Part shown: in pieces, positions 6,829 to 59,676 of the stretch
Position numbering within the stretch: position 1 is the first letter of the stretch
Layout of the letters: the number at the start of each line of letters is the position of its first letter
Assembly: GCA_910587225.1 (NCBI GenBank)
Contig: CAJULT010000003.1
Coordinates: forward strand, 13,855-77,854
DNA from: an uncultured Christensenellaceae bacterium
GTDB taxonomy: Bacteria > Bacillota > Clostridia > Christensenellales > UBA1242
Reading direction: 5' to 3'
Length of the DNA stretch: 64,000 bases
Program-made: the position numbers and the translations under genes
Notes under the pieces: generated by a model
Told to the model about the DNA's origin: nothing
Database searches by the model: none
The model's input: the letters and a program-made list of their open reading frames with translations, nothing else

Positions 6829-6903
6829 GCGAAAGTGGCCTAGTGGTATGGCATCAGCTTCCCAAGCTGAGGATCGCGGGTTCGAATCCCGTCTTTCGCT
6901 CCA
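6829..6903 (+). tRNA. tRNA-Gly (anticodon CCC)
   Basis: 75-nt cloverleaf. Acceptor GCGAAAG/CTTTCGC; anticodon stem TCAGC/GCTGA with loop TTCCCAA; T-arm GCGGG-TTCGAAT-CCCGT; encoded CCA. Confidence 0.9.

Positions 6904-7732: not shown

Positions 7733-7734
<2 letters not shown>
7705..7734. terminator. Bidirectional hairpin terminator after the collagen-like gene
   Basis: CAGGGC (7712-7717) tttc GCCCTG (7722-7727), flanked by an A-run and a T-run. Confidence 0.7.
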
Positions 7735-9886
<2,152 letters not shown>

Positions 9887-9937: not shown

Positions 9938-9966
9938 TTGACAATTATCGCTAGTCATGGTATCAT
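9938..9966 (+). promoter_or_regulatory. Promoter of the 69-aa ORF
   Basis: TTGACA (9938-9943), 17-nt spacer, TATCAT (9961-9966). Two TTCGA(C/A) boxes sit at 9915-9921 and 9925-9931, just upstream of the -35. Confidence 0.55.
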
Positions 9967-9998
9967 AATTTCACACTAAAAAACGGAGGAGAAAAGTA

Positions 9999-10208
9999 AT
10001 GGACGATATGTTTGAAATGGAAGGGTACTCAACAATTGTTGCTAAACCAATGCGTATTGGAATGGGTAAAACAGTTCGATTAAATACAAAGTACAATGAG
10101 TACGAACTACGTCGCGAGTCTGATCCTAATCGTAGAAGAGTCCCACATGCGAAGCGCAATGTTAAGGCTCTTGCCGCAAAGGAACAGGATGCTCAATGCG
10201 AAGATTAA
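9999..10208 (+). CDS. Small basic hypothetical protein (69 aa)
   Basis: Strong SD GGAGGA 9 nt upstream of the ATG, its own promoter, and a terminator directly downstream. I do not recognise the family. Confidence 0.55.
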   Translation: MDDMFEMEGYSTIVAKPMRIGMGKTVRLNTKYNEYELRRESDPNRRRVPHAKRNVKALAAKEQDAQCED

Positions 10209-10221
10209 TGTTAAATAAAAT

Positions 10222-10246
10222 ATAGCGCACTTTAGCGCTATTTTTT
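10222..10246. terminator. Hairpin terminator shared by convergent small ORFs
   Basis: ATAGCGC (10222-10228) / GCGCTAT (10235-10241), then a T-run. Confidence 0.7.
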
Positions 10247-10432
10247 ATTGTCTTTTTGACACCTTCGTTGAGTTTCTATCAGCCCTATATTTGAGGAAAG
10301 TGCGGCAAAAAAGGTGCGGAGAGTGCAAAGCTCCCCCATGGTCGCATTTTTAGATAGCGATATGGCAAGGCTTGACGCAAAAGCGGCAAGTTCTTCCGCG
10401 CATATGTCGCAAACTGATCCCTTCTTTTCCAT
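10238..10432 (-). CDS. Small Cys-containing helical hypothetical protein (64 aa counted from MEKKGSVC)
   Basis: The helical pattern CAEELAAFASSLAISLSKNATMGEL...FFAALSSNIGLIETQRR resembles small conserved clostridial proteins of unknown function. No SD is visible and the start is uncertain. Confidence 0.4.
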   Translation of the reverse strand: MEKKGSVCDICAEELAAFASSLAISLSKNATMGELCTLRTFFAALSSNIGLIETQRRCQKDNKK

Positions 10433-10502
10433 ATTAATATTTACGCAAATAGCTATATTTTTGATAGTGTTTTCCCGCAAAATCCACCGTCCGCGCATTC
10501 AC

Positions 10503-10531
10503 TTGACAATTATTTTTGTTTATGTTAATAT
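10503..10531 (+). promoter_or_regulatory. Promoter firing into the ORF-free structured region
   Basis: TTGACA (10503-10508), 17-nt spacer, extended -10 TGtTAATAT (10523-10531). Confidence 0.6.
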
Positions 10532-10537
10532 AATACT

Positions 10538-11113
10538 ATCACGAAGGTGCAGTATTCTAGTCAACTAGTGCGAATGAGAATGCCGAAATAAGCATTGATG
10601 GCACAACTATGAAGTTCGTGGTGCTGGCTTTGGTTGCCCAAATCGGGGCTGGTACTGGGAGTTAAGATTTTTGGGTGGCGAGTAATGGCATACACGCTTA
10701 AGCCCAATTATCGCGGAGACCCAAGTGGGTAAAGAAAATATGAAGGCATATCTATTTATCGCTTGGATGAGAAACCTGCAATGTGGCGAAAGTTGCGTGC
10801 AGTGTAGCCTGCTTTGAGTGGATTGTTTGGAATAGAGCGTAAATCAATATTTATCCAAAGTACACGGAAGATATTCGGTTGCTCTTGAAATTACGTCCGC
10901 AAAATAAAGATAAGTTCGTACGATGTTGTTAAGGAAATCTTCTAGACTGTTTGCGTGAGCGAGATACTATGGGGATTATAGTGTGGTCTAAGTGGCGATT
11001 CGGTGCAAGTTCTGCGTAAAGGGAAACCGCTCTGCTGGTAACGGAAGAGTGCAGAATTGGGAAATCCAACCGAACCTATGCCGCAAGGTTTACTCATAGT
11101 ATTGCCTTCGTAA
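10538..11113 (+). ncRNA. Large structured ncRNA, candidate OLE RNA
   Basis: About 520 nt (10569-11089) has no ORF of 60 aa or more on either strand, yet the region is visibly more G+C-rich than true spacers. It has a dedicated promoter. A terminal helix can form between ACGAAGGTG (10541-10549) and 11103-11111 (..TGCCTTCGT). Local hairpins include ACTAT/ATAGT (10966-10982), TTGG-gaaat-CCAA (11057-11069) and AACCT/AGGTT (11073-11090). It lies immediately upstream of a small 4-TM protein gene. Confidence 0.55.
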
Positions 11114-11144
11114 ATTAAAATTAAAGCTTTGTGCTAAAATATAT

Positions 11145-11702
11145 ATGAAAGAAAAACAGAAAAAAACTAAACATTCTAACGCTTGGATATGGCCTATAAA
11201 GATTTTTATAATTGCCATAGTTCTTTCTTTGTCGTTCAGCATAGTAAGTGAGTTAGCTTTAACCGGCGCACATATTGCTGTGGCGATTGTAGTAATACTC
11301 GTCTTTATTGGAATAAGCATCGTGTTTGATATGCTTGGACTTGCGGTAGCTTCAAGTGACCTCAATCATTTTACTGCTATGGCAGCGAGAAAAGTCAAAG
11401 GCAGTAAGCAGGCAATAGCCCTTAACAAAAATGCTGACAAAGTATCTTCGGTTTGCGCTGACGTTATCGGTGACGTATGCGGAATATTGGCTGGTGCAGC
11501 TGGCGCGAGTATAGTTGCCAAGATTGCACTAGCAGCAAATGGTGATTTCATATCAATATTAATCGCCTCTTCAATTTCGGCAGCAATCGCCGGACTAACG
11601 ATATTTGGTAAGGCAAGTTTAAAGCGATATGCAATCAAACACGGAAATGAAATCACCTTAAAACTTGCTAAGTTTATCAATTTCTTTACTAGGAAAGATT
11701 AA
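11145..11702 (+). CDS. Small four-TM membrane protein, candidate OLE-associated protein A (OapA-like)
   Basis: 185 aa (about 20 kDa) with four hydrophobic helices, positioned directly after the structured RNA, as published for oapA. Confidence 0.6.
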   Translation: MKEKQKKTKHSNAWIWPIKIFIIAIVLSLSFSIVSELALTGAHIAVAIVVILVFIGISIVFDMLGLAVASSDLNHFTAMAARKVKGSKQAIALNKNADKVSSVCADVIGDVCGILAGAAGASIVAKIALAANGDFISILIASSISAAIAGLTIFGKASLKRYAIKHGNEITLKLAKFINFFTRKD

Positions 11703-11723
11703 AAAACTGTTTTTCAATTAAAA

Positions 11724-11749
11724 AAGCGGAGTTCTACTTCCGCTTTTTT
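11724..11749. terminator. Bidirectional terminator (OapA-like gene / gltX)
   Basis: AAGCGGA (11724-11730) / TCCGCTT (11739-11745), with a T-run after and an A-run before. Confidence 0.75.
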
Positions 11750-11750
11750 G

Positions 11751-13376
11751 TTATGCATTTTTAAGCCTTTCTATAATTTCCTTTTCGCCCATGATTGTCA
11801 TAAGCTCATAGATGTCTGGTGAAATCTTTTGCCCCGTTAGCGCCACTCGCAAATGTTCGCAAGCTTTCGCCATATCCCCTTTAAATGCCTCTGGGTTTGC
11901 TTTATACGCCTTTCTATCTGTTGCGTAACCAAGTTTTTCGGCAGTTTCTTTCACGTAGCCATACCATTCATCCTTATCTTTTGGCATTTTAAAGTTTTTA
12001 AGGTATGTTTCTACAAATTCATGATACTGCTCCGCATTATCTATTTCCTTATCGGTTGGGCGAGTAAACATATATTTAAAGTGGTCTTCAATCATGCTCC
12101 ACATGTATATATCTTTACGAGGTTTCAATCCCCCACGATCGATCGAGCAAACCTTAATTGCATAATCCTTATTTTCTTCAAGATATTTAGCAAGAGCAGG
12201 TTTAAATTCTTTTGCCCATTTAAGCCACTCGTCGTAAACCTCTTCGGCGGTCATTTTAGCTATGATATTTTTAGAAATATCGTTGAGTTTAACAATATCA
12301 AATACCGGAGCGCCAGTTGTAATATCATTGATACCGAAATTAAATTCTCGCCAAGACTTATCAGGATTTTGCGCTCTCCAAATTTCAAAGCCGGAATTGA
12401 TAAGGTTTAATAGATATTCGAGTACCGCATCAGTCGGATATCCCATTTCAAAATAGTAAAGCATTTTAAATTCAGGGTCATAACGCTTTGAGATTTTACG
12501 ACGATTCCCGTTTTCTCCAAGCTTGCATATCTTTGGGTTATGGCAATATGCAGTCGGCTTAAAACCAAGTGCGTCAAATATTTCAAGGTGAACAGGAGTT
12601 GAGGCAATATACTCTTCCCCGCGCACAACAACAGTTGTTCCCATTAGCGTATCATCAACCGCATGCGCAAATGGATATGGAGGAATACCATCATTCTTCA
12701 AAAGAACCACGTCCTTAGCATTCGCTTTTGCTTCAATATCACCTTTTATAAGGTCATGAAATTTAATTCTTTGAGAGCCGTCATTTTTTGTTCGCAATCT
12801 AATTGCAAACTTATCACCATTGTCAAGGTGAGCCTTAACCTGCTCCATTGTCAAATCGCGGCATGGGTCAAATTCAGTTTCGTCATTTTCTAAGAATTTT
12901 GTTTTGCGCTCTTCAAGTATTTCTTCCAAACTTTCTGTTTTTTTGCAAAAACATGGGAAAGCGCGCCCTCTTGATACTAGGTCTTTTGCGAATGCTTTAT
13001 AAATATTCCCTCTTTGAGATTGCACATAAGGTCCGTAAGCACCTATATCTTTGCCATCAAGTGTTTGATATTCGTTAATTTTAATATTAAAACGATTTAG
13101 AATATCAAAAATAAACTCTCTTGCGCCTTCCACCTCGCGTTTAGCGTCGGTATCTTCCAGTCTTAAAAAGAAAACCCCATTTGAAGCTTGGCAAAGAGAA
13201 TAAGAAATAAATGCCTGAAAGAAGTTTCCAATATGCATAAAGCCTGTCGGACTTGGTGCGAAACGAGAAACAACCTCGCCATTATTTAAATTGCGAGGTG
13301 GATATTTTTTTAATATATCTTGTACTGTTAGCTTAACATCTGGATATAGCATATCCGCAAGTTTTTGATAATCCAT
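11751..13376 (-). CDS. gltX: Glutamate--tRNA ligase (long form)
   Basis: 541 aa. Motifs RFAPSPTGFMHIGN (HIGH) and KISKR (KMSKS). SD AGGAGA is upstream. Confidence 0.9.
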   Translation of the reverse strand: MDYQKLADMLYPDVKLTVQDILKKYPPRNLNNGEVVSRFAPSPTGFMHIGNFFQAFISYSLCQASNGVFFLRLEDTDAKREVEGAREFIFDILNRFNIKINEYQTLDGKDIGAYGPYVQSQRGNIYKAFAKDLVSRGRAFPCFCKKTESLEEILEERKTKFLENDETEFDPCRDLTMEQVKAHLDNGDKFAIRLRTKNDGSQRIKFHDLIKGDIEAKANAKDVVLLKNDGIPPYPFAHAVDDTLMGTTVVVRGEEYIASTPVHLEIFDALGFKPTAYCHNPKICKLGENGNRRKISKRYDPEFKMLYYFEMGYPTDAVLEYLLNLINSGFEIWRAQNPDKSWREFNFGINDITTGAPVFDIVKLNDISKNIIAKMTAEEVYDEWLKWAKEFKPALAKYLEENKDYAIKVCSIDRGGLKPRKDIYMWSMIEDHFKYMFTRPTDKEIDNAEQYHEFVETYLKNFKMPKDKDEWYGYVKETAEKLGYATDRKAYKANPEAFKGDMAKACEHLRVALTGQKISPDIYELMTIMGEKEIIERLKNA

Positions 13377-20952: not shown

Positions 20953-23900
20953 CTATTTAAGTTCCACCTTGTAGCTTTCGCCAGTTTTGGTAATTACCAA
21001 ACTATGTCCATCCCCGCAAGAGATTGTTCTTTCAGAAATGGTGTTTGTAAGACCGCTGATGCCTTGACCAGAATAGCAGAGGTTATTGCTGCCCGAGGGG
21101 CTTCTTGTGGCGTCGCCTGCAAATTTTATGCCGCTTGCTTCAACATTGCCGTTTATTCTTCCCGCAATAAGAATATATGCAATTCCCCCTAGGTAAACTT
21201 TCCCATTTGTACTTGTACATTCAGGCGCTATATTATTGTAGTTGTAAGACAATAACCCATCATAATTACGTACCACAATACCCGCTAAATAGTAAGTAGC
21301 TGCTCCACCAGAAGCTAAGATTTTGCCGTTATTGCCACTTTCAACAATTCTGCTTGAGCTTCCTATGTTGTTAATTGCAATTCCTGCAACTCTGTAATAG
21401 TAATTTGCTCTAGCGGATTGAATGTTTATATTCGCTCTATTTTCACAGTGAATAATCCTGCCGCCGCCCATGTTGGAAACTACAAAGCCGCCGAAGCTAA
21501 GGTTGTAATTAGAACTTGGTCTTATTTGAATGCTACCCTCATTTACGCAGCTGTCGATAATGCCGCTATTTACTGCAACAAGTCCGCCAATAGCCACGTC
21601 GCGCGCTCCACTGACTGACATGTTCATAGACTGCCCAGTTATTGTCACATTAGAAATATTTCCATAGTTTTTAAGAGCAAGTCCGCCTGCCAAAAGGTTT
21701 CCTTCAACGCTTAAATTGTAGTTTACATTTAACTTAAGTTTTTTTATCGAGCCGCCTTTGCCAATCTCTTTAAATAGCGCAGCAAGCTTCGTGTAATTAA
21801 TAGTAATCTGACCAGTCTTATCAATCTCGCTATAGAAAGTGAGGTTTTCGCTGACTTCTTTATCGTTTACTATAATGGATATTGCGCTTGACAAGTTCAC
21901 GGTTATCGTCTGCCCATTAGCATCGTACTGTCCATAGAAAGTACCATTAAATGCGAAGCCATTTACATCAAATTCAAGGTTTTCTGTTTGTTTGAAATGG
22001 TACTCTGCCAAGTTGCGAACTGCCATATTGTTAAATTGCTCTTCACTCGCAATTAGATAAGGATTGTCAACTGTGCCGTCACCAGCTTCAAACAATTTGT
22101 ATTCTATGTATCCGTCTGGTGCAGTCCAAGAAATAGGCTCTTTCGAGTAAAGGCTGTTTGCATTCTTTCTTACATAAACCTGAGCAGAAATAATCTTACC
22201 CATCCTTCTCGGTTGATAGAAATTGTTTGTGGTTTCGCTAGTTTCAATAATCTCAATTATCTTGCCATTATCATCATAAATGAAATTGCCGTCGTCATCA
22301 CACTTGCCATAAGTCACCTTTACTTTGTAACCAGGTATGTCGCCTTCCTTCTTTTCGCCTTCCCATGGAGTCCAGTTAAATCTATATTCTTCTGTCGACC
22401 AAGAAACAGTTGCCTCTTCTTGCCATGATGGAGCAGGGAGCGTAAAGTCTTCTGTGTTGCCTTTAATCACCATAAAGGTTTGATAGCTTTGACTAGGCAT
22501 TACATCAAATATCAATTTTAGCGAAGTGTAGCCCTCTGGAATATAGATGGTAGTTCCTTCATTAGTAATTTTGTCACCTCTAAACACTAGTTTGAAATTA
22601 CTATGTTGCTTGCTATTTTTATCATAAGATTCTACAAAATCACTTGTAAGTGTAATCTCTTCTCCATCTTTGTTATAGAACGCGATTACTTGCAATTTTA
22701 CATTGTAATATTCAGTTGAGCGAAGTATCTGTTTGTTTTCCAAAAGTTTAGTGATATCAATTGTATAACCTTCATCAGTTTCAATCATATCAAAGTCATC
22801 GCCTGTAACACTTGGTGCTTTATACACCTCTTGACTTTCGCCAAATTTTACAGCAACAAGGTCACTCTTAATCTGATCACTTTCACAAGCATACATTTTA
22901 ATTCTATAAGGGTTTGGAGAATATTCAAGACCTATAGCTTCAAAGGTGTTTCCATTTTGCTCACCTTCGATAATATTTCCCTTCTCATCTACAAAGCCAA
23001 ATTTAGTATTTGCAGTTGTATCATAATCCCATACGATAACACCTTGATTATTTACAGTTACATTTGTAGGCGAAGCCGTCTTTGTGATAGCTTTGCTTTC
23101 AATATAACTACTTGCAAGGACATAACTACCATTTTCGTATCTGCAAACTGCGGAGTTTATAGCTTCCTCAGTCAAAGCTGTGCCAGTTGGAACTGCAAGT
23201 GCACGAACTTTAAATTTGTACTCTGCATTAGGGAATCTTGAAACAATCTGAGCTGTATCAAGCTCTGCTTTAGTAGTTAAAAACTTTTCGGTAACTTCGG
23301 CAGTGCTACTATCTTGAACGTTTTTACTATTATCATGTTCAACGGTCACCTCATAAACGATCTGCCCGTTTACACTTGCGGCATTTGTTGCTTCGTCCCA
23401 TGAAACAATACCGTTATTAAGGGTAACAGCCCCGCTAAGTTTTAACATTGCAGCAGGCACAGTTTCCACTGCGGAAGAAAGTATTATGTATGGTTTCTCT
23501 CCCGCCATCACTTTAGTAAATGTCGCCTCTTGGTCAACATTAAGAGTAAGCTCCTCGCCGCTGATTGTAAGCTTAATTCCATTTGGCAGGAGGGTCGTCG
23601 AAGCGTCTTCTCGCACTTGTGTACCAATACTTGAAATGTAAAACTCTGTTGCAGTTGTTTCTGTCTTTCTATAGTCTGCATCTTCAGCCGTGCCACCTGC
23701 AACATAAGTCATGGTTTTGACTTTATTCATGCTCGGCGAAATATAACTATCTCCGTCTGCTTTATCATTGGATACTTTAAATCTATAATCATCGCCATAA
23801 TCCAAATCTAGTTGGTTTGCTTTGATAGTAAATTTGTTTCCAGCAGCGCTTACTTCAACGTTTTTATTTTTATAAATGTTTTGAATTAAGATATTATCGC

Positions 23901-26900
23901 TATCAATGCGCATGCTTGCTTGGCTCAATCCGCCCTTAATAGAAAGGATAACATAATGATAATAACCACTATCTATTAAATTAAGCCATGCATTGCCATT
24001 TTTATCAGGGCTTAAATCTTTAGGCTTTTCAGTCTCCTTTTCCTTGCGGTAACGCACTTGTGTAACATGCCCATGCGCATTCCAAGAAATAATTCCATTA
24101 TCAAGGGTGAGCGTGTTTTTAATATCAAGGTATACAATTTCAACTTTGTTACTCTTTCCGTTAAGGTTATATTCATTGCCAACAGTATAGATGCTAAGCA
24201 TATAACTGTTTCCGCCAAAGTCTATGCACTTGTCTTGCTTACCATCATTATATGCGTGTGTTTTGAGATCTCGCATATTAAGTGTGAGTGAAAGCACTTT
24301 CCCGTCTTGTATATTTTGTGCAAGTTCTATTGGTTCGTTGAACACATGCCTATTATATATGATTCTACCTTTATTATCTTTATCTTGGATGAGGAAGCTA
24401 GTAATCAGATATTTATCATCCACCTTTTCCACGTTAAAGCAGTATAAGCTATTTTCCCCCTTCAAATGAAGTGTATATAAGTTCGCTGAAACGCGCTTGC
24501 CATTTTCCATAATATCAGTTAGAGTAAATGTCACATAATAATTATTTCTTGAATCTTTAGTATCACTTGAAAGAGTAATTGCCGGCGCTGACGGAAGATA
24601 AACATCATGGCCAAACACTTCCTTTCCATTAATTGTTAACGAGTTTGCCAGGGATTGATTTGAACTTACATTGTTATACCCCGTATATACAGTCTGCATT
24701 GCGGTAATCTTATAACTTCCAGCTGGAATCTGTTTACCAAAATCGTCAAACAATATTTCGTTATTTGCTATACCATTTGAATTCATCATTGCATTCAGAA
24801 TATTCATTACCTGATTCCAGTATGGTATCGTTCCATTTCCATCTAGTGCCGACATTAGCGCCTCTAAGCAATTTGTATCAGTGCCACTACTTGCCGATTG
24901 GAATGTCAAGGTAGAAAGGTCTGGCATAAGCTGTGCTGCATTTACTGTTGCAGTGTAAGTACCATTGCCCTCCGAACTAGTAAATGTGAGTTTAATTAGT
25001 GAGTATTCTATACTTCTCCCTGAGAAACTAAATGGGCTAGAGAAGTTGGTATTTCCGACCATGCTGTAGAAATTGGTAGTTCCATAAGAAGTTTTAATTG
25101 CGTTAAAGAAATCGCTGTTAATTACATCCTCGCGGCTAAACATTAGGTGTCCATTCTCTACTGTTAAAGTTGCTGGAGTTGCATACTTGGTTGTAAGGAA
25201 TTCGGTAGTTGGCTCTGACGCCAAGACAAGAGTATCATTAGAAACTGACACAACTTGAATGGAATAACTAAGCCCCGGAATAAGCTTATCATAAAGGTCG
25301 ATATTGGCTGCAGTAACATACTCATAACCTCTATCTACTTTCTCGTCATTTTCTGTGGTTGTGAAGTAAACATAATAGCCTGTTGCGTCGGTTGCTGACC
25401 ATGACAGTATGTTATTAGATAGGCGAAGATTATTAGTCTTATCTAATTTTCTAATCGTAAAGTTTGAATAAGACTGCATCCAAGTATCATCTTTAAAAGT
25501 GGTCTTTTCTACTTTTATTTGAGCGTCACATGCACCAATTGATTTAAAGAAATCGTTTACATTAATTGCATAACATTCTCTGTCAGCCTTAGTTTTTCGT
25601 ATTGTGTCAAAGTGATAACCATTTTCATCTTCAATCCAAAAACCATGCAGGCTAGATGGCTGAAAGCTTTGTTCATAATGTCCCTTTGTGCCATTAATAA
25701 GCACAGTATCGGCTGTTATTTTAATTCCTCTTGCGTTAGCGTCATAACCAATCACAATGTAGTCATCAGCCATATCTTTGCCACGCAAGTATTGCATTGT
25801 CTTATCTAAAGATGAAGTGTAATTAAATTTAAACTCTTTCAAAGGAGAATTTACATTTCCAACTTTAGCAACGCCTAATTTGAAACTTACACTTCCACTT
25901 ACGTTTATTTCAAATAAGCTTATAAATTCGCCCATTGAGTAAGTACGTACTCCATTTTCCTTTTTATCTGGAGTAAACTGTTTACTTTCATTATTGTAAG
26001 TTGCCCAGAATTCAAGTTCACCTTGTGTTTCTTGCTCTTCATAGAGGGTTATTTCAACTGTTCCATAATCGTTAATCTGAATGTCTGAAATACCTTTAAG
26101 TCTATAACCTTCCTTAATAGACACTATATCTCTTGATGCAAGTTTTTTGTCTGTACTGTCATAACCTATTACGCCGATATCATACATACCGCTTAAATCG
26201 CCAAACTTTTCACTTAAGTCAATAGTGGGCGAATCGGATGAGTCGTAAATTGTATGTCCACCGATTGTAATTTCGTAGAAGAATTCTTTTATAGCTGCGG
26301 CTGCATCAATAGTCAAGATTGCATCTGCTGATAAAGAAAGTCCATTTATATTTTCAAGTCTTTCAATAGTAACAAAACTATCATTTGATTTAATAGCATT
26401 TGTAGCCGCAACTTCAAACTTAACCTCAGTTTCAAGCTCTGTAAAGAAGGTTTTATCAAGGGTGAGAATGTATTTGCTGCCAACTTTTTCAAAGGTGTAG
26501 CCTGTTCCGCTTGCGCCAGCGTCAGTAAGTGCTACAAGTTTAGTGCCGCCAATTTCAACCTCAAAGGTAACTCCACTAAATGAGCTCCAATTGTCTAAGA
26601 TTTCAAATTTAACGCTTGCGTTACTTTTTCTAAGTGTTTCTCTCGAAGTTGTATCATCTTCAACTATAACTATGTTAACATCTTCAACTGCTTGAAGTTT
26701 TGATAGGCTTAACTGCTTGTCGCTTTGCGCCACTCCGTAATACCCAGTTCCGCTTGACAGTTGATAGTTTGCAATTTCTGTTATTATCTGAACCTCATAG
26801 TCACCTTCTCCAAGCCCGTAAAGAACCTGCGATGAAAGCAATAACTGCGTTTCTTGAATACCCGAAATTTTATCTACTTGAATATTGCCATTGTATATAA

Positions 26901-29900
26901 TGACACTATAAGTTAATCCCTCTCCGTTAAAGTCATCGGCAACATTATTCCATGTGATTTTATCTCCAGCAAGGCTAGGTGTAATAGTTTGATCTGCAAG
27001 ATCTTTAAAAGTAAAGCTTGCCAATTGGCTATCAAGATAATAATATTCTACTTCCTGTTGTACAATTTTTGTCACGCTTATAAGCTGCAAATTTACTTGC
27101 TCACCTAGATCAGCAACATTGAAAGATAAGAAACCGTTCACCTTATCAAATCCACTAGCCTCGTTGCCGTTTATGAGAACTTTGTCTATCTGGTTTGGAT
27201 TAGAAATTGTTATGCTTGCGTCTCCTGCTTGATTTACATTAAGTGAAGAAATAGGTGCAAGCTGAGAAACGATAATCACGTTTGAAGACGCAGACGAAAG
27301 ATAATGTGGATTGTTTGCAATTACCATGACTGTTCTAGGTCTAGTGAAATCAATATCTAGTTTATAAGAAACCATTCTCTTGCCACCAGTTTCAGTAACT
27401 GCAGAATAATCTTCTCTTACAACTTCGCCGTCAACATAAATTGTATAAGTTGTATTACCAAGGCTTCCAACTGCCTCCCAGTTGAGAGTTCTATCCTCTT
27501 TAGAGAAAGAAATTTGTGCCGAAACTAGGCTTTCAAGTGTAAGCTGGCTTTGTCCGTCTAAGGTATGCCCTTCAAGAGAAGGAAGATAATATGTATTTCC
27601 CTCGCTCTCATTTTTGTATGCCTTGATTTGAACTTTAACCGATACGCACTGCTCATAAGCTGAGGCGAACTCACTATCTTTTTCTAGCTGAGATTGAATG
27701 TACCCGTCTAAATCAAAAGTCTTAGCATCAAGATAGCGTTGAACCACATAGTTGCTCTCTCTTCCAACAACGGTTAATATTAAGCTGTAATTGTGTGTTA
27801 ATCCCGAGTAGCCATCTGTTGATTCATTAGGATCTACAAAGGTTAAAATGCCATTTTGATATTCAATGTTCGTCGGGCGAAGAAGTCTTTTGAAATTGTA
27901 GGAAAGCTGATCGCTATCTATATAGTAATTGTTGTCTTGGTCTGGCTTGGCTATGTAGGTTATCGAAAGCGAGAAATCGCTTGTAAAGCCCAGAAGAGAT
28001 AGTTTGCCGCCATTAAGCTCTAACTCTTGCCCATCCTTTTGTACCAATATTTTTAAAGCTTGTGAGTTTGCACTTACGCTGAGCACTTCATTTTTATCAA
28101 TCGTAATTTTAGGAGTTGCAAGTTTAGTAGCAACAATTTCACTTGCTGGCGACTTGGTGTGAATTTGCGCTTCTGCGTCAGATGCTACCGCCTCGACAGA
28201 AATGTTATAATCGCCCGCGCCTTTAAGCTGCCCGCCGATTGTGAAATCATAAGTTTTTTGTATGTTTCCATCTCTGTAAACATTGGCAACCTCTCTGCCA
28301 TCAATTTTGATAACATATTTGTATGTAAATTCATCCTCTGATTCGATAGTTAAAATTTTGCTGTCGCTATCAAATGAAAGGGTTGGCGCTGTCAGCGCTT
28401 TTGTAACAAAGTAAGGACCATCGCTAGGCAAATATTCAAAATAGCTATCCCCATCCACAAAATCGGCATCCAAATAGTTGTTGATTCCGCTTTCGGTCGC
28501 TCTGGTATAAATTTTTATGTAATAATAGCCAAAGTCGAGCTTTTCTTTGATTTTGGTATCTTGGGTAACTTCATGCGCTACAAGCTCTCCTAGTGTTCCG
28601 CCCTTAACAAAGTCTTTGTCAACTTTATAAATGTAATATTCATATTCACATTCCCCGCTTACACCTTCCCAAGCAAATAAGCCATTTTCTTGGTTTGCTG
28701 CCGCTTTAGAAACTGCATCTAGTATGGTTAAGGTTTTATTAACCCTAACTTCATTTGCCGCTCCATCCTTGCGATAAGCGGTAAGTGTAAGATTGTAAAC
28801 CTTTCCGTTCGGCTGACCAAGCCTGCCGATGTTAATTTGACCTTTTTCATCAGGCACAACCTCAGTTGTTTCGCCGTTGATTGTCAGTTTGTATTCTGCA
28901 TTTTCATCTTTTGCAAAAGTCAAAATGCTGTTGCCATCCGAGTCAAGACTATGGATAAGACTAGAAATAGTATCAAATAAATAGTACTGCCTTTTCTCAA
29001 CACGAGAGTTGAGAACTCTTGCCTGACCGTCAAGCTCCTTTAAAATATCATCATTTACAAAACAAGGAAGACTTGTCACATTTAGCGCCTGCTCACCTTT
29101 CTTGCCATCTAAGTCTAGCGGTAAGGATATGTGATTTCCCGATTTTGCAGTATTTAAGTATGCGGTCAGTCCGCCATATTCAATCTTATAATTTTCGCCA
29201 TATGAAGAAGGAATAAAGTCTATTTCAAGTTTTCCACTCTGTACACGATAGGTAAACTCTGGTTTTGGCAAAATCGCAAACACCTTAGTTGTCGCTCTGC
29301 TTTTGCTATAAAAATTGTCTTTGTAATAACCACCTTTCGCGCGAACATAGAATTCATAAGTGCCATAATCAAGTTCTGCAATATCCTCAATTTCAATTAT
29401 GCCGCTGTCGCCAGTTTTAAGGTTGACATACTTTACTAAATAACCAGTATTAGACTTGCTCCATGCCAGCTGTCCTGATGGAACGCCTACTGCGACTTCA
29501 TCTAGATTGTAATTGAACTCCACCGCACTAGGTTTTGTAACTGTTATGCTTTGGTAAGATGAGAACTTTTCTTTGGTAGGGTCAAATGCTTCTAGTTTAA
29601 TTTCAACTGACTGCCCGTCACCATAATTGGCGAAATCAAGGTCGACGCTATCGCCATTAAAGTTTGAATAAATTTCAACTCCGCCCACGCTAACTTTGTA
29701 TCTTGCCAAAGGATCTTTATCCCAACTGAGTGAAACGAGATTGTTGTCAAAATCTTCATCAACTGAGGCGTTAAAATTTGAGATTCTTTCCATTGCATAG
29801 TAACTTTCAAAAATGGTTATCTGCTTTGACGAATCAACATACTTGTTTCCGTTTGCCACAATGCTGATTTCCATTTCACCTTCGTGAGGAAGCTGAAATT

Positions 29901-30414
29901 GAATGGTAGTATCTTGCGGTCTTGATGGGGTTACTTCGGTTTGCTGGTTGTCGCAAATGACGGTATAGCTTGTCGGTCTTGTAATCTGATTTTCACCGGC
30001 CTCGTTTTCCACATACACAAATGGCGCATCCCAGTTTAAAAGGCCTCCTTCGCTAACCACAAAATTGGTTGGAGCATCAAAGACATGCTTTACTATAATC
30101 GGAGCGCTTGCCAAAGTCGAACCATTGTATTTAACTTGTACAAGCCCACGCCCACTTTGAACCCCCGCATAGCCGCCGTCTACTGATTTAAAAAGTTCAG
30201 GTTTAGTCACGCTAAAAGTCACATCTTCCTTTTTCACGTTTTTAAGACTGACGTAATCAAAAAAGTCTATTACCTCCTCGCTGACTTCATATTTGGAGAT
30301 AATAAATTCATCCTTTAAAAATTTTGCACTTGCGCTGCTGCCCTTTGTGCAGGCTGATAAAGTAAGGGTAAAAAGAAAGAGTGCCGCGGCAGCAAAAAAT
30401 ATTCTTCTTTTCAT
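20953..30414 (-). CDS. Giant surface lipoprotein (3,153 aa): many Ig/FN3-like modules plus C-terminal GLUG-like beta-helix
   Basis: Lipobox LTLSAC. Module boundaries recur with motifs such as LNWDAP, LSWDKD, LAWSKS, FAWEGV, LNWEAV, ITWNNV, LSWSAT, ISWNAH and VSWDEA. The C-terminal roughly 450 aa has repeated GG(L/F)V..N.G.I..C.N motifs. SD GAAGGA. Confidence 0.9.
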   Translation of the reverse strand: MKRRIFFAAAALFLFTLTLSACTKGSSASAKFLKDEFIISKYEVSEEVIDFFDYVSLKNVKKEDVTFSVTKPELFKSVDGGYAGVQSGRGLVQVKYNGSTLASAPIIVKHVFDAPTNFVVSEGGLLNWDAPFVYVENEAGENQITRPTSYTVICDNQQTEVTPSRPQDTTIQFQLPHEGEMEISIVANGNKYVDSSKQITIFESYYAMERISNFNASVDEDFDNNLVSLSWDKDPLARYKVSVGGVEIYSNFNGDSVDLDFANYGDGQSVEIKLEAFDPTKEKFSSYQSITVTKPSAVEFNYNLDEVAVGVPSGQLAWSKSNTGYLVKYVNLKTGDSGIIEIEDIAELDYGTYEFYVRAKGGYYKDNFYSKSRATTKVFAILPKPEFTYRVQSGKLEIDFIPSSYGENYKIEYGGLTAYLNTAKSGNHISLPLDLDGKKGEQALNVTSLPCFVNDDILKELDGQARVLNSRVEKRQYYLFDTISSLIHSLDSDGNSILTFAKDENAEYKLTINGETTEVVPDEKGQINIGRLGQPNGKVYNLTLTAYRKDGAANEVRVNKTLTILDAVSKAAANQENGLFAWEGVSGECEYEYYIYKVDKDFVKGGTLGELVAHEVTQDTKIKEKLDFGYYYIKIYTRATESGINNYLDADFVDGDSYFEYLPSDGPYFVTKALTAPTLSFDSDSKILTIESEDEFTYKYVIKIDGREVANVYRDGNIQKTYDFTIGGQLKGAGDYNISVEAVASDAEAQIHTKSPASEIVATKLATPKITIDKNEVLSVSANSQALKILVQKDGQELELNGGKLSLLGFTSDFSLSITYIAKPDQDNNYYIDSDQLSYNFKRLLRPTNIEYQNGILTFVDPNESTDGYSGLTHNYSLILTVVGRESNYVVQRYLDAKTFDLDGYIQSQLEKDSEFASAYEQCVSVKVQIKAYKNESEGNTYYLPSLEGHTLDGQSQLTLESLVSAQISFSKEDRTLNWEAVGSLGNTTYTIYVDGEVVREDYSAVTETGGKRMVSYKLDIDFTRPRTVMVIANNPHYLSSASSNVIIVSQLAPISSLNVNQAGDASITISNPNQIDKVLINGNEASGFDKVNGFLSFNVADLGEQVNLQLISVTKIVQQEVEYYYLDSQLASFTFKDLADQTITPSLAGDKITWNNVADDFNGEGLTYSVIIYNGNIQVDKISGIQETQLLLSSQVLYGLGEGDYEVQIITEIANYQLSSGTGYYGVAQSDKQLSLSKLQAVEDVNIVIVEDDTTSRETLRKSNASVKFEILDNWSSFSGVTFEVEIGGTKLVALTDAGASGTGYTFEKVGSKYILTLDKTFFTELETEVKFEVAATNAIKSNDSFVTIERLENINGLSLSADAILTIDAAAAIKEFFYEITIGGHTIYDSSDSPTIDLSEKFGDLSGMYDIGVIGYDSTDKKLASRDIVSIKEGYRLKGISDIQINDYGTVEITLYEEQETQGELEFWATYNNESKQFTPDKKENGVRTYSMGEFISLFEINVSGSVSFKLGVAKVGNVNSPLKEFKFNYTSSLDKTMQYLRGKDMADDYIVIGYDANARGIKITADTVLINGTKGHYEQSFQPSSLHGFWIEDENGYHFDTIRKTKADRECYAINVNDFFKSIGACDAQIKVEKTTFKDDTWMQSYSNFTIRKLDKTNNLRLSNNILSWSATDATGYYVYFTTTENDEKVDRGYEYVTAANIDLYDKLIPGLSYSIQVVSVSNDTLVLASEPTTEFLTTKYATPATLTVENGHLMFSREDVINSDFFNAIKTSYGTTNFYSMVGNTNFSSPFSFSGRSIEYSLIKLTFTSSEGNGTYTATVNAAQLMPDLSTLTFQSASSGTDTNCLEALMSALDGNGTIPYWNQVMNILNAMMNSNGIANNEILFDDFGKQIPAGSYKITAMQTVYTGYNNVSSNQSLANSLTINGKEVFGHDVYLPSAPAITLSSDTKDSRNNYYVTFTLTDIMENGKRVSANLYTLHLKGENSLYCFNVEKVDDKYLITSFLIQDKDNKGRIIYNRHVFNEPIELAQNIQDGKVLSLTLNMRDLKTHAYNDGKQDKCIDFGGNSYMLSIYTVGNEYNLNGKSNKVEIVYLDIKNTLTLDNGIISWNAHGHVTQVRYRKEKETEKPKDLSPDKNGNAWLNLIDSGYYHYVILSIKGGLSQASMRIDSDNILIQNIYKNKNVEVSAAGNKFTIKANQLDLDYGDDYRFKVSNDKADGDSYISPSMNKVKTMTYVAGGTAEDADYRKTETTATEFYISSIGTQVREDASTTLLPNGIKLTISGEELTLNVDQEATFTKVMAGEKPYIILSSAVETVPAAMLKLSGAVTLNNGIVSWDEATNAASVNGQIVYEVTVEHDNSKNVQDSSTAEVTEKFLTTKAELDTAQIVSRFPNAEYKFKVRALAVPTGTALTEEAINSAVCRYENGSYVLASSYIESKAITKTASPTNVTVNNQGVIVWDYDTTANTKFGFVDEKGNIIEGEQNGNTFEAIGLEYSPNPYRIKMYACESDQIKSDLVAVKFGESQEVYKAPSVTGDDFDMIETDEGYTIDITKLLENKQILRSTEYYNVKLQVIAFYNKDGEEITLTSDFVESYDKNSKQHSNFKLVFRGDKITNEGTTIYIPEGYTSLKLIFDVMPSQSYQTFMVIKGNTEDFTLPAPSWQEEATVSWSTEEYRFNWTPWEGEKKEGDIPGYKVKVTYGKCDDDGNFIYDDNGKIIEIIETSETTNNFYQPRRMGKIISAQVYVRKNANSLYSKEPISWTAPDGYIEYKLFEAGDGTVDNPYLIASEEQFNNMAVRNLAEYHFKQTENLEFDVNGFAFNGTFYGQYDANGQTITVNLSSAISIIVNDKEVSENLTFYSEIDKTGQITINYTKLAALFKEIGKGGSIKKLKLNVNYNLSVEGNLLAGGLALKNYGNISNVTITGQSMNMSVSGARDVAIGGLVAVNSGIIDSCVNEGSIQIRPSSNYNLSFGGFVVSNMGGGRIIHCENRANINIQSARANYYYRVAGIAINNIGSSSRIVESGNNGKILASGGAATYYLAGIVVRNYDGLLSYNYNNIAPECTSTNGKVYLGGIAYILIAGRINGNVEASGIKFAGDATRSPSGSNNLCYSGQGISGLTNTISERTISCGDGHSLVITKTGESYKVELK

Positions 30415-32517: not shown

Positions 32518-32592
32518 GCCTCAGTAGCTCAGTGGTGGAGCACTCGGCTGTTAACCGATAGGCCGTAGGTTCGAATCCTACCTGAGGCGCCA
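32518..32592 (+). tRNA. tRNA-Asn (anticodon GTT)
   Basis: 75-nt cloverleaf. Acceptor GCCTCAG/CTGAGGC; D-arm GCTC-AGTGGTG-GAGC; anticodon loop CTGTTAA; T-arm GTAGG-TTCGAAT-CCTAC; encoded CCA. Confidence 0.9.
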
Positions 32593-59087: not shown

Positions 59088-59174
59088 GCGGAGAGAAAGG
59101 GATTCGAACCCCTGGAAGCTGTTAACTTCAACGGTTTTCAAGACCGCCGCTTTCGACCGCTCAGCCATCTCTCC
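59086..59174 (-). tRNA. tRNA-Ser (anticodon TGA)
   Basis: The reverse complement reads GGAGAGATGGCTGAGCGGTCGAAAGCGGCGGTCTTGAAAACCGT..(long variable arm)..GGGGTTCGAATCCCTTTCTCTCCGCCA. Anticodon loop is CTTGAAA; length 89 nt. Confidence 0.9.
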
Positions 59175-59256: not shown

Positions 59257-59676
59257 TTAGCTTTCTTTTGGTTTATCTTTATCAGCGCCGCTTTCGCCAT
59301 CTTCGCTAAACTTAGCTCGCGTCTCTCTGGCTATCTTATCCGACAAGATTGAAATCAGCTCTCCATTAGTCAACTTATATGCCGCATTACAAATTTCTAT
59401 ACCAAAAATGCGGTTTAAGTTTTGTAGTGAATCCCTATTATATGCAACCTCAATTGCATGACGGATACTTCTCTCCACTACCGAAGCCGTTGCATCATAC
59501 ATCTCTCCAACAAGTGGATAAAGTCTGGCAGTCATCTTATCTAAGAGTGACTGGTCTTTCACCGCCTCCATAATAGCAAACCTTAAAAATCTGAAACCTT
59601 GCACGTTGCTTGGAATGCCAAGTTCAAGCATCATATTAGTTGTTTGTGTTTCGACAAATATTTCTTTTTTATTCAT
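59257..59676 (-). CDS. Stand-alone Spo0A C-terminal (DNA-binding effector) domain protein
   Basis: 139 aa. FRFLRFAIMEAV...LYPLVGEMYDATASVVERSIRHAIEVAYNR matches the Spo0A_C signature (..TASRVERAIRHAIEVAW..). There is no receiver domain. SD AGGAGGA. Confidence 0.8.
   Translation of the reverse strand: MNKKEIFVETQTTNMMLELGIPSNVQGFRFLRFAIMEAVKDQSLLDKMTARLYPLVGEMYDATASVVERSIRHAIEVAYNRDSLQNLNRIFGIEICNAAYKLTNGELISILSDKIARETRAKFSEDGESGADKDKPKES

Follow-up and report, generated by a model that had tools for sequence, protein, structure and literature searches.

The ole-oapA module, which comprises the structured OLE RNA and the gene of the membrane protein OapA, is almost certainly present in a 64,000-nucleotide (nt) stretch of DNA from an uncultured Christensenellaceae bacterium (assembly GCA_910587225.1, contig CAJULT010000003.1, positions 13,855 to 77,854 of the forward strand), referred to here as the window. 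When the whole window is compared with Rfam 15, the OLE family (RF01071) matches with an E-value of 6.9e-101 and 355.7 bits, where the gathering score is 50. The match is untruncated, with 597 nt aligned to model positions 1-616 of 616, and it is repeated in a scan of the sub-region (E 1.7e-102). The highly conserved (upper-case) positions of the OLE consensus are identical in the window at 200 of 245 places (~82%), and 129 of the 149 base pairs of the model are canonical when the Rfam structure is mapped onto the window. Counted from the predicted transcription start site (about 10538) to the end of helix P1 (11111), the RNA would have a length of 574 nt. The original prediction, made from the letters alone, had proposed either an OLE/OapA-like pair with an RNA of roughly 575 nt or a new large noncoding RNA, and had suggested an Rfam search; the search returns the first, with OLE as the sole credible family. 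The two genes of the module are:

10528 to 11124, plus strand: OLE RNA, a full-model match to RF01071, whose structured core runs from 10541 (5′ strand of P1) to 11111 (3′ strand of P1).
11145 to 11702, plus strand: oapA, encoding a protein of 185 amino acids (aa), 19.5 kDa and pI 9.9.

The protein encoded at 11145-11702 is, judged by its sequence, an OapA. It is 35% identical over 170 aa to the OapA of Clostridium acetobutylicum (BLASTP, E 2e-29; query from Supplementary Table 4 of Kretsch et al., PMC12286853), which bears out the proposed homology of the 185-aa protein to OapA. A four-helix protein gene close downstream of the RNA had been expected, and it begins 33 nt after P1. The four hydrophobic segments of the protein coincide with four hydropathy peaks, and its transmembrane (TM) helices are predicted at about 15-39, 44-70, 97-130, and 135-165 by AlphaFold2 (mean pLDDT 78.8, pTM 0.69). 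A DxxxD motif, which is typical of OapA and absent from CNNM domains (PMC11332333), is formed by D106-V-I-G-D110 (DVIGD), and both aspartic residues are invariant in 31 homologues. Basic residues are clustered at the N-terminus, in the loop 65-105 (6 K/R) and in the tail 158-185 (7 K/R), on the putative cytoplasmic face, and R82, K83, K85, and K88 are nearly invariant in the same homologues. The Pfam CNNM model PF01595 reaches 24.6 bits, below its cut-off of 28.4, and a sub-threshold CNNM match has also been published for OapA (Fernando and Breaker, PMC11332333). Pfam finds no further domain in the 185 residues, and the protein stops after the TM domain. The possibility that it is a PF01595 transporter was ruled out by this sub-threshold score and by the lack of a CBS-pair or CorC domain. 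The top five Protein Data Bank matches of the predicted model in Foldseek are CorB/CorC TM domains (7M1T_A, 7M1T_B, 7M1U, 7CFF, and 7CFG), with probabilities of 0.91-1.00 and TM-scores of about 0.5 to 7M1T, 7M1U, and 7CFG and 0.40 to 7CFF; 7M1U is also the published top structural match of the OapA of Halalkalibacterium halodurans (PMC11332333). NCBIfam, which is without an OapA model, gave a single match (E 0.009) that was set aside as chance. According to the account of Block et al. 2011 given in PMC12265935, OapA binds OLE RNA co-operatively and is required for its membrane localisation.

The order of the two genes is conserved among related loci. One genome per species was scanned, which yielded 80 loci, the closest being 80% identical; nearly all of them belong to metagenome-assembled genomes (MAGs) of uncultured Clostridia, and their nearest named relatives are Candidatus Onthoplasma, placed by NCBI in the Christensenellales. 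An OLE homologue lies upstream of oapA on the same strand in 77 of the 80 loci according to nhmmer, and of 20 loci scanned with Rfam, 19 have OLE (330-408 bits) immediately before oapA. Two of the three exceptions are without upstream DNA. The third, L044:1-5552 (CAKVMH010000003.1, a Clostridia MAG from the Hadza gut), is the one real exception: it has an oapA homologue and no OLE within 2.5 kb upstream, a 409-aa open reading frame (ORF) ends about 150 nt upstream of oapA, and oapA has its own TATAAT and AAAGG motif. Assembly GCA_949037005.1 and several metagenome assemblies encode an identical OapA protein, and its neighbours are also the same wherever the contigs are long enough to show them.

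The region could in principle belong to another large ornate RNA, such as ROOL, GOLLD or raiA, or to a new class that merely resembles OLE, as its size and ornate structure alone fit several classes; nothing else was found in favour of this idea, which we consider extremely improbable. ROOL, GOLLD, and raiA, which had been named as alternatives from the start, give no match at 10200-11800 even with a permissive Rfam cut-off at which matches with E up to 1 were considered. OLE is the only family returned there above noise: STnc50, STnc430, CsrC, and mir-60 (E 0.24-0.58) sit on terminators and remain far below their gathering scores. In the window as a whole OLE is the sole non-tRNA family in the Rfam 15 scan, and the only other matches are three tRNA genes at 6829-6900 (plus strand), 32518-32589 (plus strand), and 59089-59174 (minus strand). 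The OLE element described here is thus an already known class detectable by a standard Rfam scan and is not new, and nothing in the analysis contradicts its assignment to the family, whose biology is taken from PMC12265935, PMC11332333, PMC7936274, PMC9723947, and PMC12286853.

The OLE fold was examined on homologous loci, as had been suggested with the OLE proposal. The Rfam consensus structure was projected onto the window and its pairs were counted on a 73-sequence alignment of homologues; P1, P2, P3, and P3.1, which the Rfam OLE model leaves unpaired, were added, and stem names were assigned from the text descriptions in the OLE papers. The controls consisted of 3′ partners slid by 1-3 columns and of 500 shuffles, and covariation was assessed by cell counts. 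Over 174 pairs in 26 helices, 84.8% of the cells are paired, against 41-46% in the slid controls, and both-sided changes occur in 130 of the 174 pairs. The unshifted partners give a covariation score of 0.378 and the slid controls no more than 0.141, and none of the 500 shuffles reaches the observed values. The model match and this covariation together support an OLE fold with the published multi-stem architecture. Its elements in the window are:

10541 to 10548, plus strand: 5′ strand of P1, ACGAAGGU, which pairs with 11104-11111 and closes the whole RNA.
11104 to 11111, plus strand: 3′ strand of P1, GCCUUCGU, the partner of 10541-10548.
10556-10560 with 10942-10946, plus strand: P2, 100% paired.
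10562-10565 with 10925-10928, plus strand: P3, 96.9% paired.
10568-10575 with 10914-10921, plus strand: P3.1, 71.3% paired.
10579 to 10596, plus strand: P4-type hairpin with an A-rich loop, CCGAAAUAAG, 98.6% paired, with 4 of 4 pairs covarying.
10615 to 10661, plus strand: long P5/P5.1 hairpin, 97.1% paired, with the loop UGCC at 10635-10638.
10666 to 10712, plus strand: P6/P6.1 hairpin, included in the covariation alignment, with the loop AUGGCA at 10685-10690.
10720 to 10767, plus strand: P7 hairpin, present and covarying.
10776 to 10802, plus strand: P8 hairpin, closed by GAAA, present and covarying.
10811 to 10910, plus strand: long P9 arm, with helices in the covariation alignment and the terminal loop GUAC at 10860-10863.
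10931 to 10941 and 10951 to 10962, plus strand: two small hairpins that flank the 3′ strand of P2, CUAGA (10942-10946).
10963 to 11103, plus strand: 3′ domain, with helices 87.7-100% paired and mostly covarying.
10963-10973 with 11093-11103, plus strand: P12.
10982-10986 with 11081-11085, plus strand: P12.1.
10999-11004 with 11069-11074, plus strand: P12.2.
11008-11015 with 11051-11058, plus strand: P14.
11029 to 11050, plus strand: P14.1, with the GNRA loop GUAA at 11038-11041.
11059 to 11067, plus strand: mini-hairpin GG-GAAAU-CC.

The closing helix P1 is paired in 96.9% of the cells, with both-sided changes in 6 of its 8 pairs. A pairing of 10541-10549 with 11103-11111 had been proposed; eight of its base pairs stand, and the ninth, 10549 with 11103, was dropped because the family model has 11103 paired in P12. 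Within P2, the pair U10556/A10946 is changed to C/G in 21 sequences. P3 (4 bp) and P3.1 (8 bp) add up to 12 bp, which is the published length of the OLE stem proposed to span the membrane (PMC12265935). The original prediction had also pointed to three local hairpins with GNRA-type or GAAA-containing loops, and these fared differently. The hairpin at 11057-11069 is retained with modest support: 90.8% of its cells are paired, and three of its pairs show changes on both sides, in only 8 cells. The hairpin at 10966-10982 is rejected, being 63.6% paired with zero both-sided changes, and the one at 11073-11090, being invariant, is without support. Both overlap the long-range helices P12, P12.1, and P12.2, all of which are supported by covariation.

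The same helices bear on the idea that the region is a decayed protein-coding gene, with residual conservation that mimics an RNA. The absence of an intact ORF is the only point in its favour: no ORF of at least 60 aa was found within 10569-11089 on either strand, as had been noticed from the letters, and the largest has 51 aa. The substitutions are compensatory in helices and not codon-like, the covariance-model E-value is 7e-101, and the same ORF-free region is kept in 77 loci, so that a pseudogene origin has a negligible probability. The G+C content, which had been claimed to exceed that of the spacers, is indeed 0.40-0.475 over 10500-11100 against 0.31-0.35 in the flanking spacers, and the GC skew is strongly positive.

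Several loops of the OLE RNA correspond to contacts known from solved structures. Cryo-electron microscopy (cryo-EM) shows that OLE RNA forms a homodimer through A-rich P4 loops, P5.1-P6.1 kissing loops and a symmetric contact of P9 loops (PMC12265935, PMC12286853). In the window, the P5.1 loop UGCC is complementary to GGCA (10687-10690) of the P6.1 loop, and both are invariant in the 73 homologues. The P9 loop carries a palindrome, which is GUAC in 37 of the homologues, GGCC in 19, GCGC in 9, and ACGU in 2 (alignment columns 381-400). Switching of the L9.3 palindrome has been described by Kretsch et al. (PMC12286853) for the set GGCC/GAUC/AGCU, which is extended by these counts. As the loop switches among palindromes, it follows the pattern expected of a loop that pairs with itself between molecules, and the window copy should dimerise by homology with the solved RNAs of C. 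acetobutylicum and Clostridium botulinum. A candidate site for a further protein, OapC, which binds the kink-turn (k-turn) that flanks P5 (PMC9723947), is also present:

10607 to 10612, plus strand: 5′ half of the candidate OapC k-turn, with C10607, the 3-nt bulge UAU, G10611, and A10612; its partner is A10664 A10665 G10666.

The core of this candidate k-turn (C10607-G10666, the 3-nt bulge, and G10611 A10612 opposite A10664 A10665) is invariant in the 73 homologues.

Judged from the signals around them, the RNA and oapA appear to form a bicistron of their own, about 1.2 kb long:

10503 to 10531, plus strand: sigma-70-type promoter, with the -35 box TTGACA at 10503-10508, a 17-nt spacer, the extended -10 dinucleotide TG at 10523-10524 and TAATAT at 10526-10531.
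11112 to 11144, plus strand: OLE-oapA spacer, 33 nt, A/U-rich.
11719 to 11750, no strand assigned: intrinsic terminator, a hairpin between an A-run and a U-run.

The promoter, which had been described as near-consensus, agrees with the consensus at 10 of 12 positions and also has the extended -10 TG. Most of 72 related loci carry a promoter of the form TTGACA-17-TGnTAATAT/TATAAT, with 9-12 nt between it and P1. From its position, transcription is predicted to start near 10538, about 3 nt before P1. In four of the related loci (L019, L024, L030, and L040), a TTGACA/TAATAT promoter lies about 30 nt farther upstream of P1, which gives a longer 5′ leader. The terminator has a folding energy of -14.7 kcal/mol (z -3.81), none of 200 shuffles folds equally well, and it can serve both oapA on the plus strand and a convergent gene on the minus strand. 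Both flanking genes lie on the strand opposite to ole-oapA: the upstream one encodes a PALP-family (pyridoxal-phosphate-dependent) enzyme, and the downstream one is gltX-like and encodes a tRNA synthetase of class I, Glu/Gln type. With its own promoter, a terminator after oapA and neighbours on the opposite strand, the pair appears to be a self-contained two-gene unit.

The spacer that separates the ole promoter from the PALP-family gene (9959-10502) contains two small ORFs, at 9999-10208 (plus strand, 69 aa) and 10238-10498 (minus strand, 86 aa), for which no family match was found and which are both called genes in some public contigs, and a palindromic terminator-like hairpin is present at 10222-10241.

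Several points weigh against the ole-oapA reading of the locus. The hairpin P13 is missing from the window RNA:

11005 to 11007, plus strand: site of P13, where the hairpin is absent and 21 model positions are skipped and replaced by 2 nt, between the 5′ strand of P12.2 and P14.

A GNRA tetraloop and a bulge of one nucleotide in P13 form the primary OapB-binding site in H. halodurans (PMC7936274). The second C-helix pair of the candidate k-turn is A-A in the register used, a register that was inferred from the published text. The RNA may for these reasons have other protein partners than in the H. halodurans model. The gene oapA is without a Shine-Dalgarno sequence at 11112-11147. The start site, the co-transcription, any processing and the abundance of the RNA are all predicted from sequence, and the membrane localisation, the dimerisation and the stress function are transferred by analogy from other species. 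For the localisation, the formation of an RNP, the high abundance and the stress phenotypes, H. halodurans and surrogate hosts are the only known cases.

The loss of P13 is shared by 70 of the 73 homologues. The other three (L053:2270-2300, L059, and L071) have hairpins at this site with the loops UUGUUU, CAUAA, and AUAAAA, all of them non-GNRA (columns 567-591). As the hairpin is absent, the primary OapB contact is probably not used by this lineage of gut Clostridia, and the locus is classed as OLE outside the H. halodurans-type subtype. The GNRA loop of P14.1, which is the weak secondary OapB site, is kept in the window. Neither oapB nor oapC was found in the 64-kb window, where no KOW or L7Ae domain occurs among the small ORFs and a tblastn search with the OapC of C. 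acetobutylicum gives nothing significant (best E 0.32); the scope of these searches is the window and not the rest of the genome.

The lack of a Shine-Dalgarno sequence before oapA, which had been noticed beforehand, stands out in the window, where 46 ORF starts were checked and 28 of them carry a GGAGG-, AGGAG-, GGAG-, GAGG- or AGGA-type motif. It is also missing in close relatives with OLE-oapA spacers of 31-38 nt; in these, a small hairpin precedes the ATG of oapA by about 10 nt, and its arms vary with complementarity kept (ATGC/GCAT, AGCU/AGCU, and UGUG/CACA). In the window this hairpin is reduced to AGC/GCU at about 11131-11141.

RNA-dependent control of oapA translation is conceivable because oapA lacks the Shine-Dalgarno sequence, and the structured region might then be mainly a cis-acting 5′ leader (a riboswitch or translational operator) that controls oapA and has no job of its own. 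Such a leader would agree with the apparent placement of OLE and oapA on one transcript, as the 33-nt spacer between them (11112-11144) contains no terminator and no stable fold (-3.6 kcal/mol, z -0.36), and with the missing Shine-Dalgarno sequence here and in close relatives. It is, however, a very unlikely explanation, since the RNA of this family binds OapA, is abundant, is needed for the stress phenotypes of H. halodurans and lies inside a polycistronic cluster in that species. In addition, a leader would need far less than an RNA of about 570 nt with some 25 helices and intermolecular contacts that are conserved, and more distant relatives show SD-like (Shine-Dalgarno-like) motifs and OLE-oapA gaps of up to hundreds of nt, these lengths being approximate because the oapA starts were called by a crude first-start rule.

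The host belongs to the anaerobic or extremophilic Bacillota, in which OLE had been expected: it is one of the uncultured gut Clostridia near Candidatus Onthoplasma and carries spore-type genes. The minus-strand gene at 7733-8890 codes for an exosporium-like protein of 385 aa, in which collagen triple-helix repeats are combined with a BclA C-terminal domain. Its repeat region has a local G+C of 56-62% in a window of about 40% G+C and, on the opposite strand, gives rise to a spurious long ORF (8076-8924). The only match of a 139-aa ORF at 59257-59676 on the minus strand is to the DNA-binding domain at the C-terminus of Spo0A (PF08769, E 1.6e-29), and the ORF has no receiver domain. The Spo0A_C ORF and the BclA-like gene together suggest a spore-forming host; in published work the presence of OLE correlates with sporulation, with which the spore-type genes of the window agree. 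A very long ORF of 3153 aa is also found at 20953-30414 on the minus strand.

If the locus acts as an ole-oapA module, the dedicated extended -10 promoter would start a transcript about 3 nt before P1, which would consist of the OLE RNA of about 574 nt, the 33-nt spacer and oapA and would stop at 11719-11750. P1 and P2 would close the molecule, the 12-bp P3/P3.1 stem would lead into the domain of P4-P9, and P10-P14.1 would form the second domain. By analogy with the solved RNAs, two OLE copies would pair via the A-rich P4 loop, the UGCC/GGCA kissing loops of P5.1 and P6.1 and the palindromic GUAC loop of P9. A dimer of OapA, as a four-helix CNNM-like membrane protein, would bind OLE and keep the RNA at the cell membrane, as proposed for its relatives. 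The resulting OLE ribonucleoprotein (RNP) may help the cell to cope with stress, which for the H. halodurans OLE includes cold, short-chain alcohols, excess Mg2+, and poor carbon sources.

To our knowledge, OLE, as a whole family, is one of the largest structured bacterial RNAs without a known biochemical function. A membrane-spanning position has recently been proposed for it from cryo-EM (PMC12265935). The locus in the window is nothing new in kind, and is a clean and compact example from an uncultured gut lineage; as the original prediction shows, the OLE class is recognisable from raw sequence. A copy without P13 and with a clear promoter and a clear terminator is mainly of comparative use, as a data point on what the OLE RNP can do without. 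It is a speculative possibility, to which we give limited credence, that the Onthoplasma-type locus is a pared-down and self-contained OLE system, with one promoter, a P13-less RNA without the primary OapB contact and an oapA without a Shine-Dalgarno sequence, whose translation might depend on the upstream RNA or on the small conserved spacer hairpin. In that case, the minimal functional form of the OLE RNP would be that of this lineage, which would also point to RNA-coupled expression of the anchor protein.

Among the known systems, the CNNM/CorB/CorC/MpfA Mg2+ transporters (PF01595) resemble the OapA of the window in the predicted fold of their TM domain, and the similarity in sequence is weak. 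Unlike these transporters, OapA is without the CBS and CorC cytoplasmic domains, has four TM helices versus three in CorB, contains the DxxxD motif and scores below the Pfam cut-off. It resembles known OapA proteins in its size of about 20 kDa, four TM helices, DxxxD motif, basic clusters, sub-threshold PF01595 match and predicted CorB-like fold, and differs from them in nothing of note save its start codon without a Shine-Dalgarno sequence.

Two variants of OLE RNA have been described. Variant 1 is commonest in the uncultured gut order TANB77 and has shortened P7, P8, and P9 (Fernando and Breaker 2024, PMC11332333); its RNAs often lack the OapB-binding nucleotides at the end of P13, and such lineages are largely without OapB and OapC (PMC11332333). 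The window RNA, likewise from uncultured gut Clostridia, is without the nucleotides at the P13 end that bind OapB, so that its one notable departure, the loss of P13, is previously described for variant 1. Unlike variant 1, its P7, P8, and P9 align to the full-length model without large deletions. An assignment to variant 1 is tentative and, as these helices are not obviously shortened, membership is not asserted and the copy is named a P13-less form. Variant 2 (RF39 type), in which P7 and P8 are wholly absent, is excluded because both are present.

In comparison with the full-length OLE RNAs of H. halodurans, C. acetobutylicum, and C. botulinum, the window copy is without the P13 hairpin and has the P9 palindrome GUAC and not GGCC, and its ole-oapA pair is isolated with its own promoter and terminator, unlike the long polycistronic cluster of H. 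halodurans. It shares with them P1-P12.2, P14, and P14.1, which covary, as well as complementary L5.1 and L6.1 loops, a palindromic P9 loop, oapA directly downstream and an anaerobic Bacillota host.

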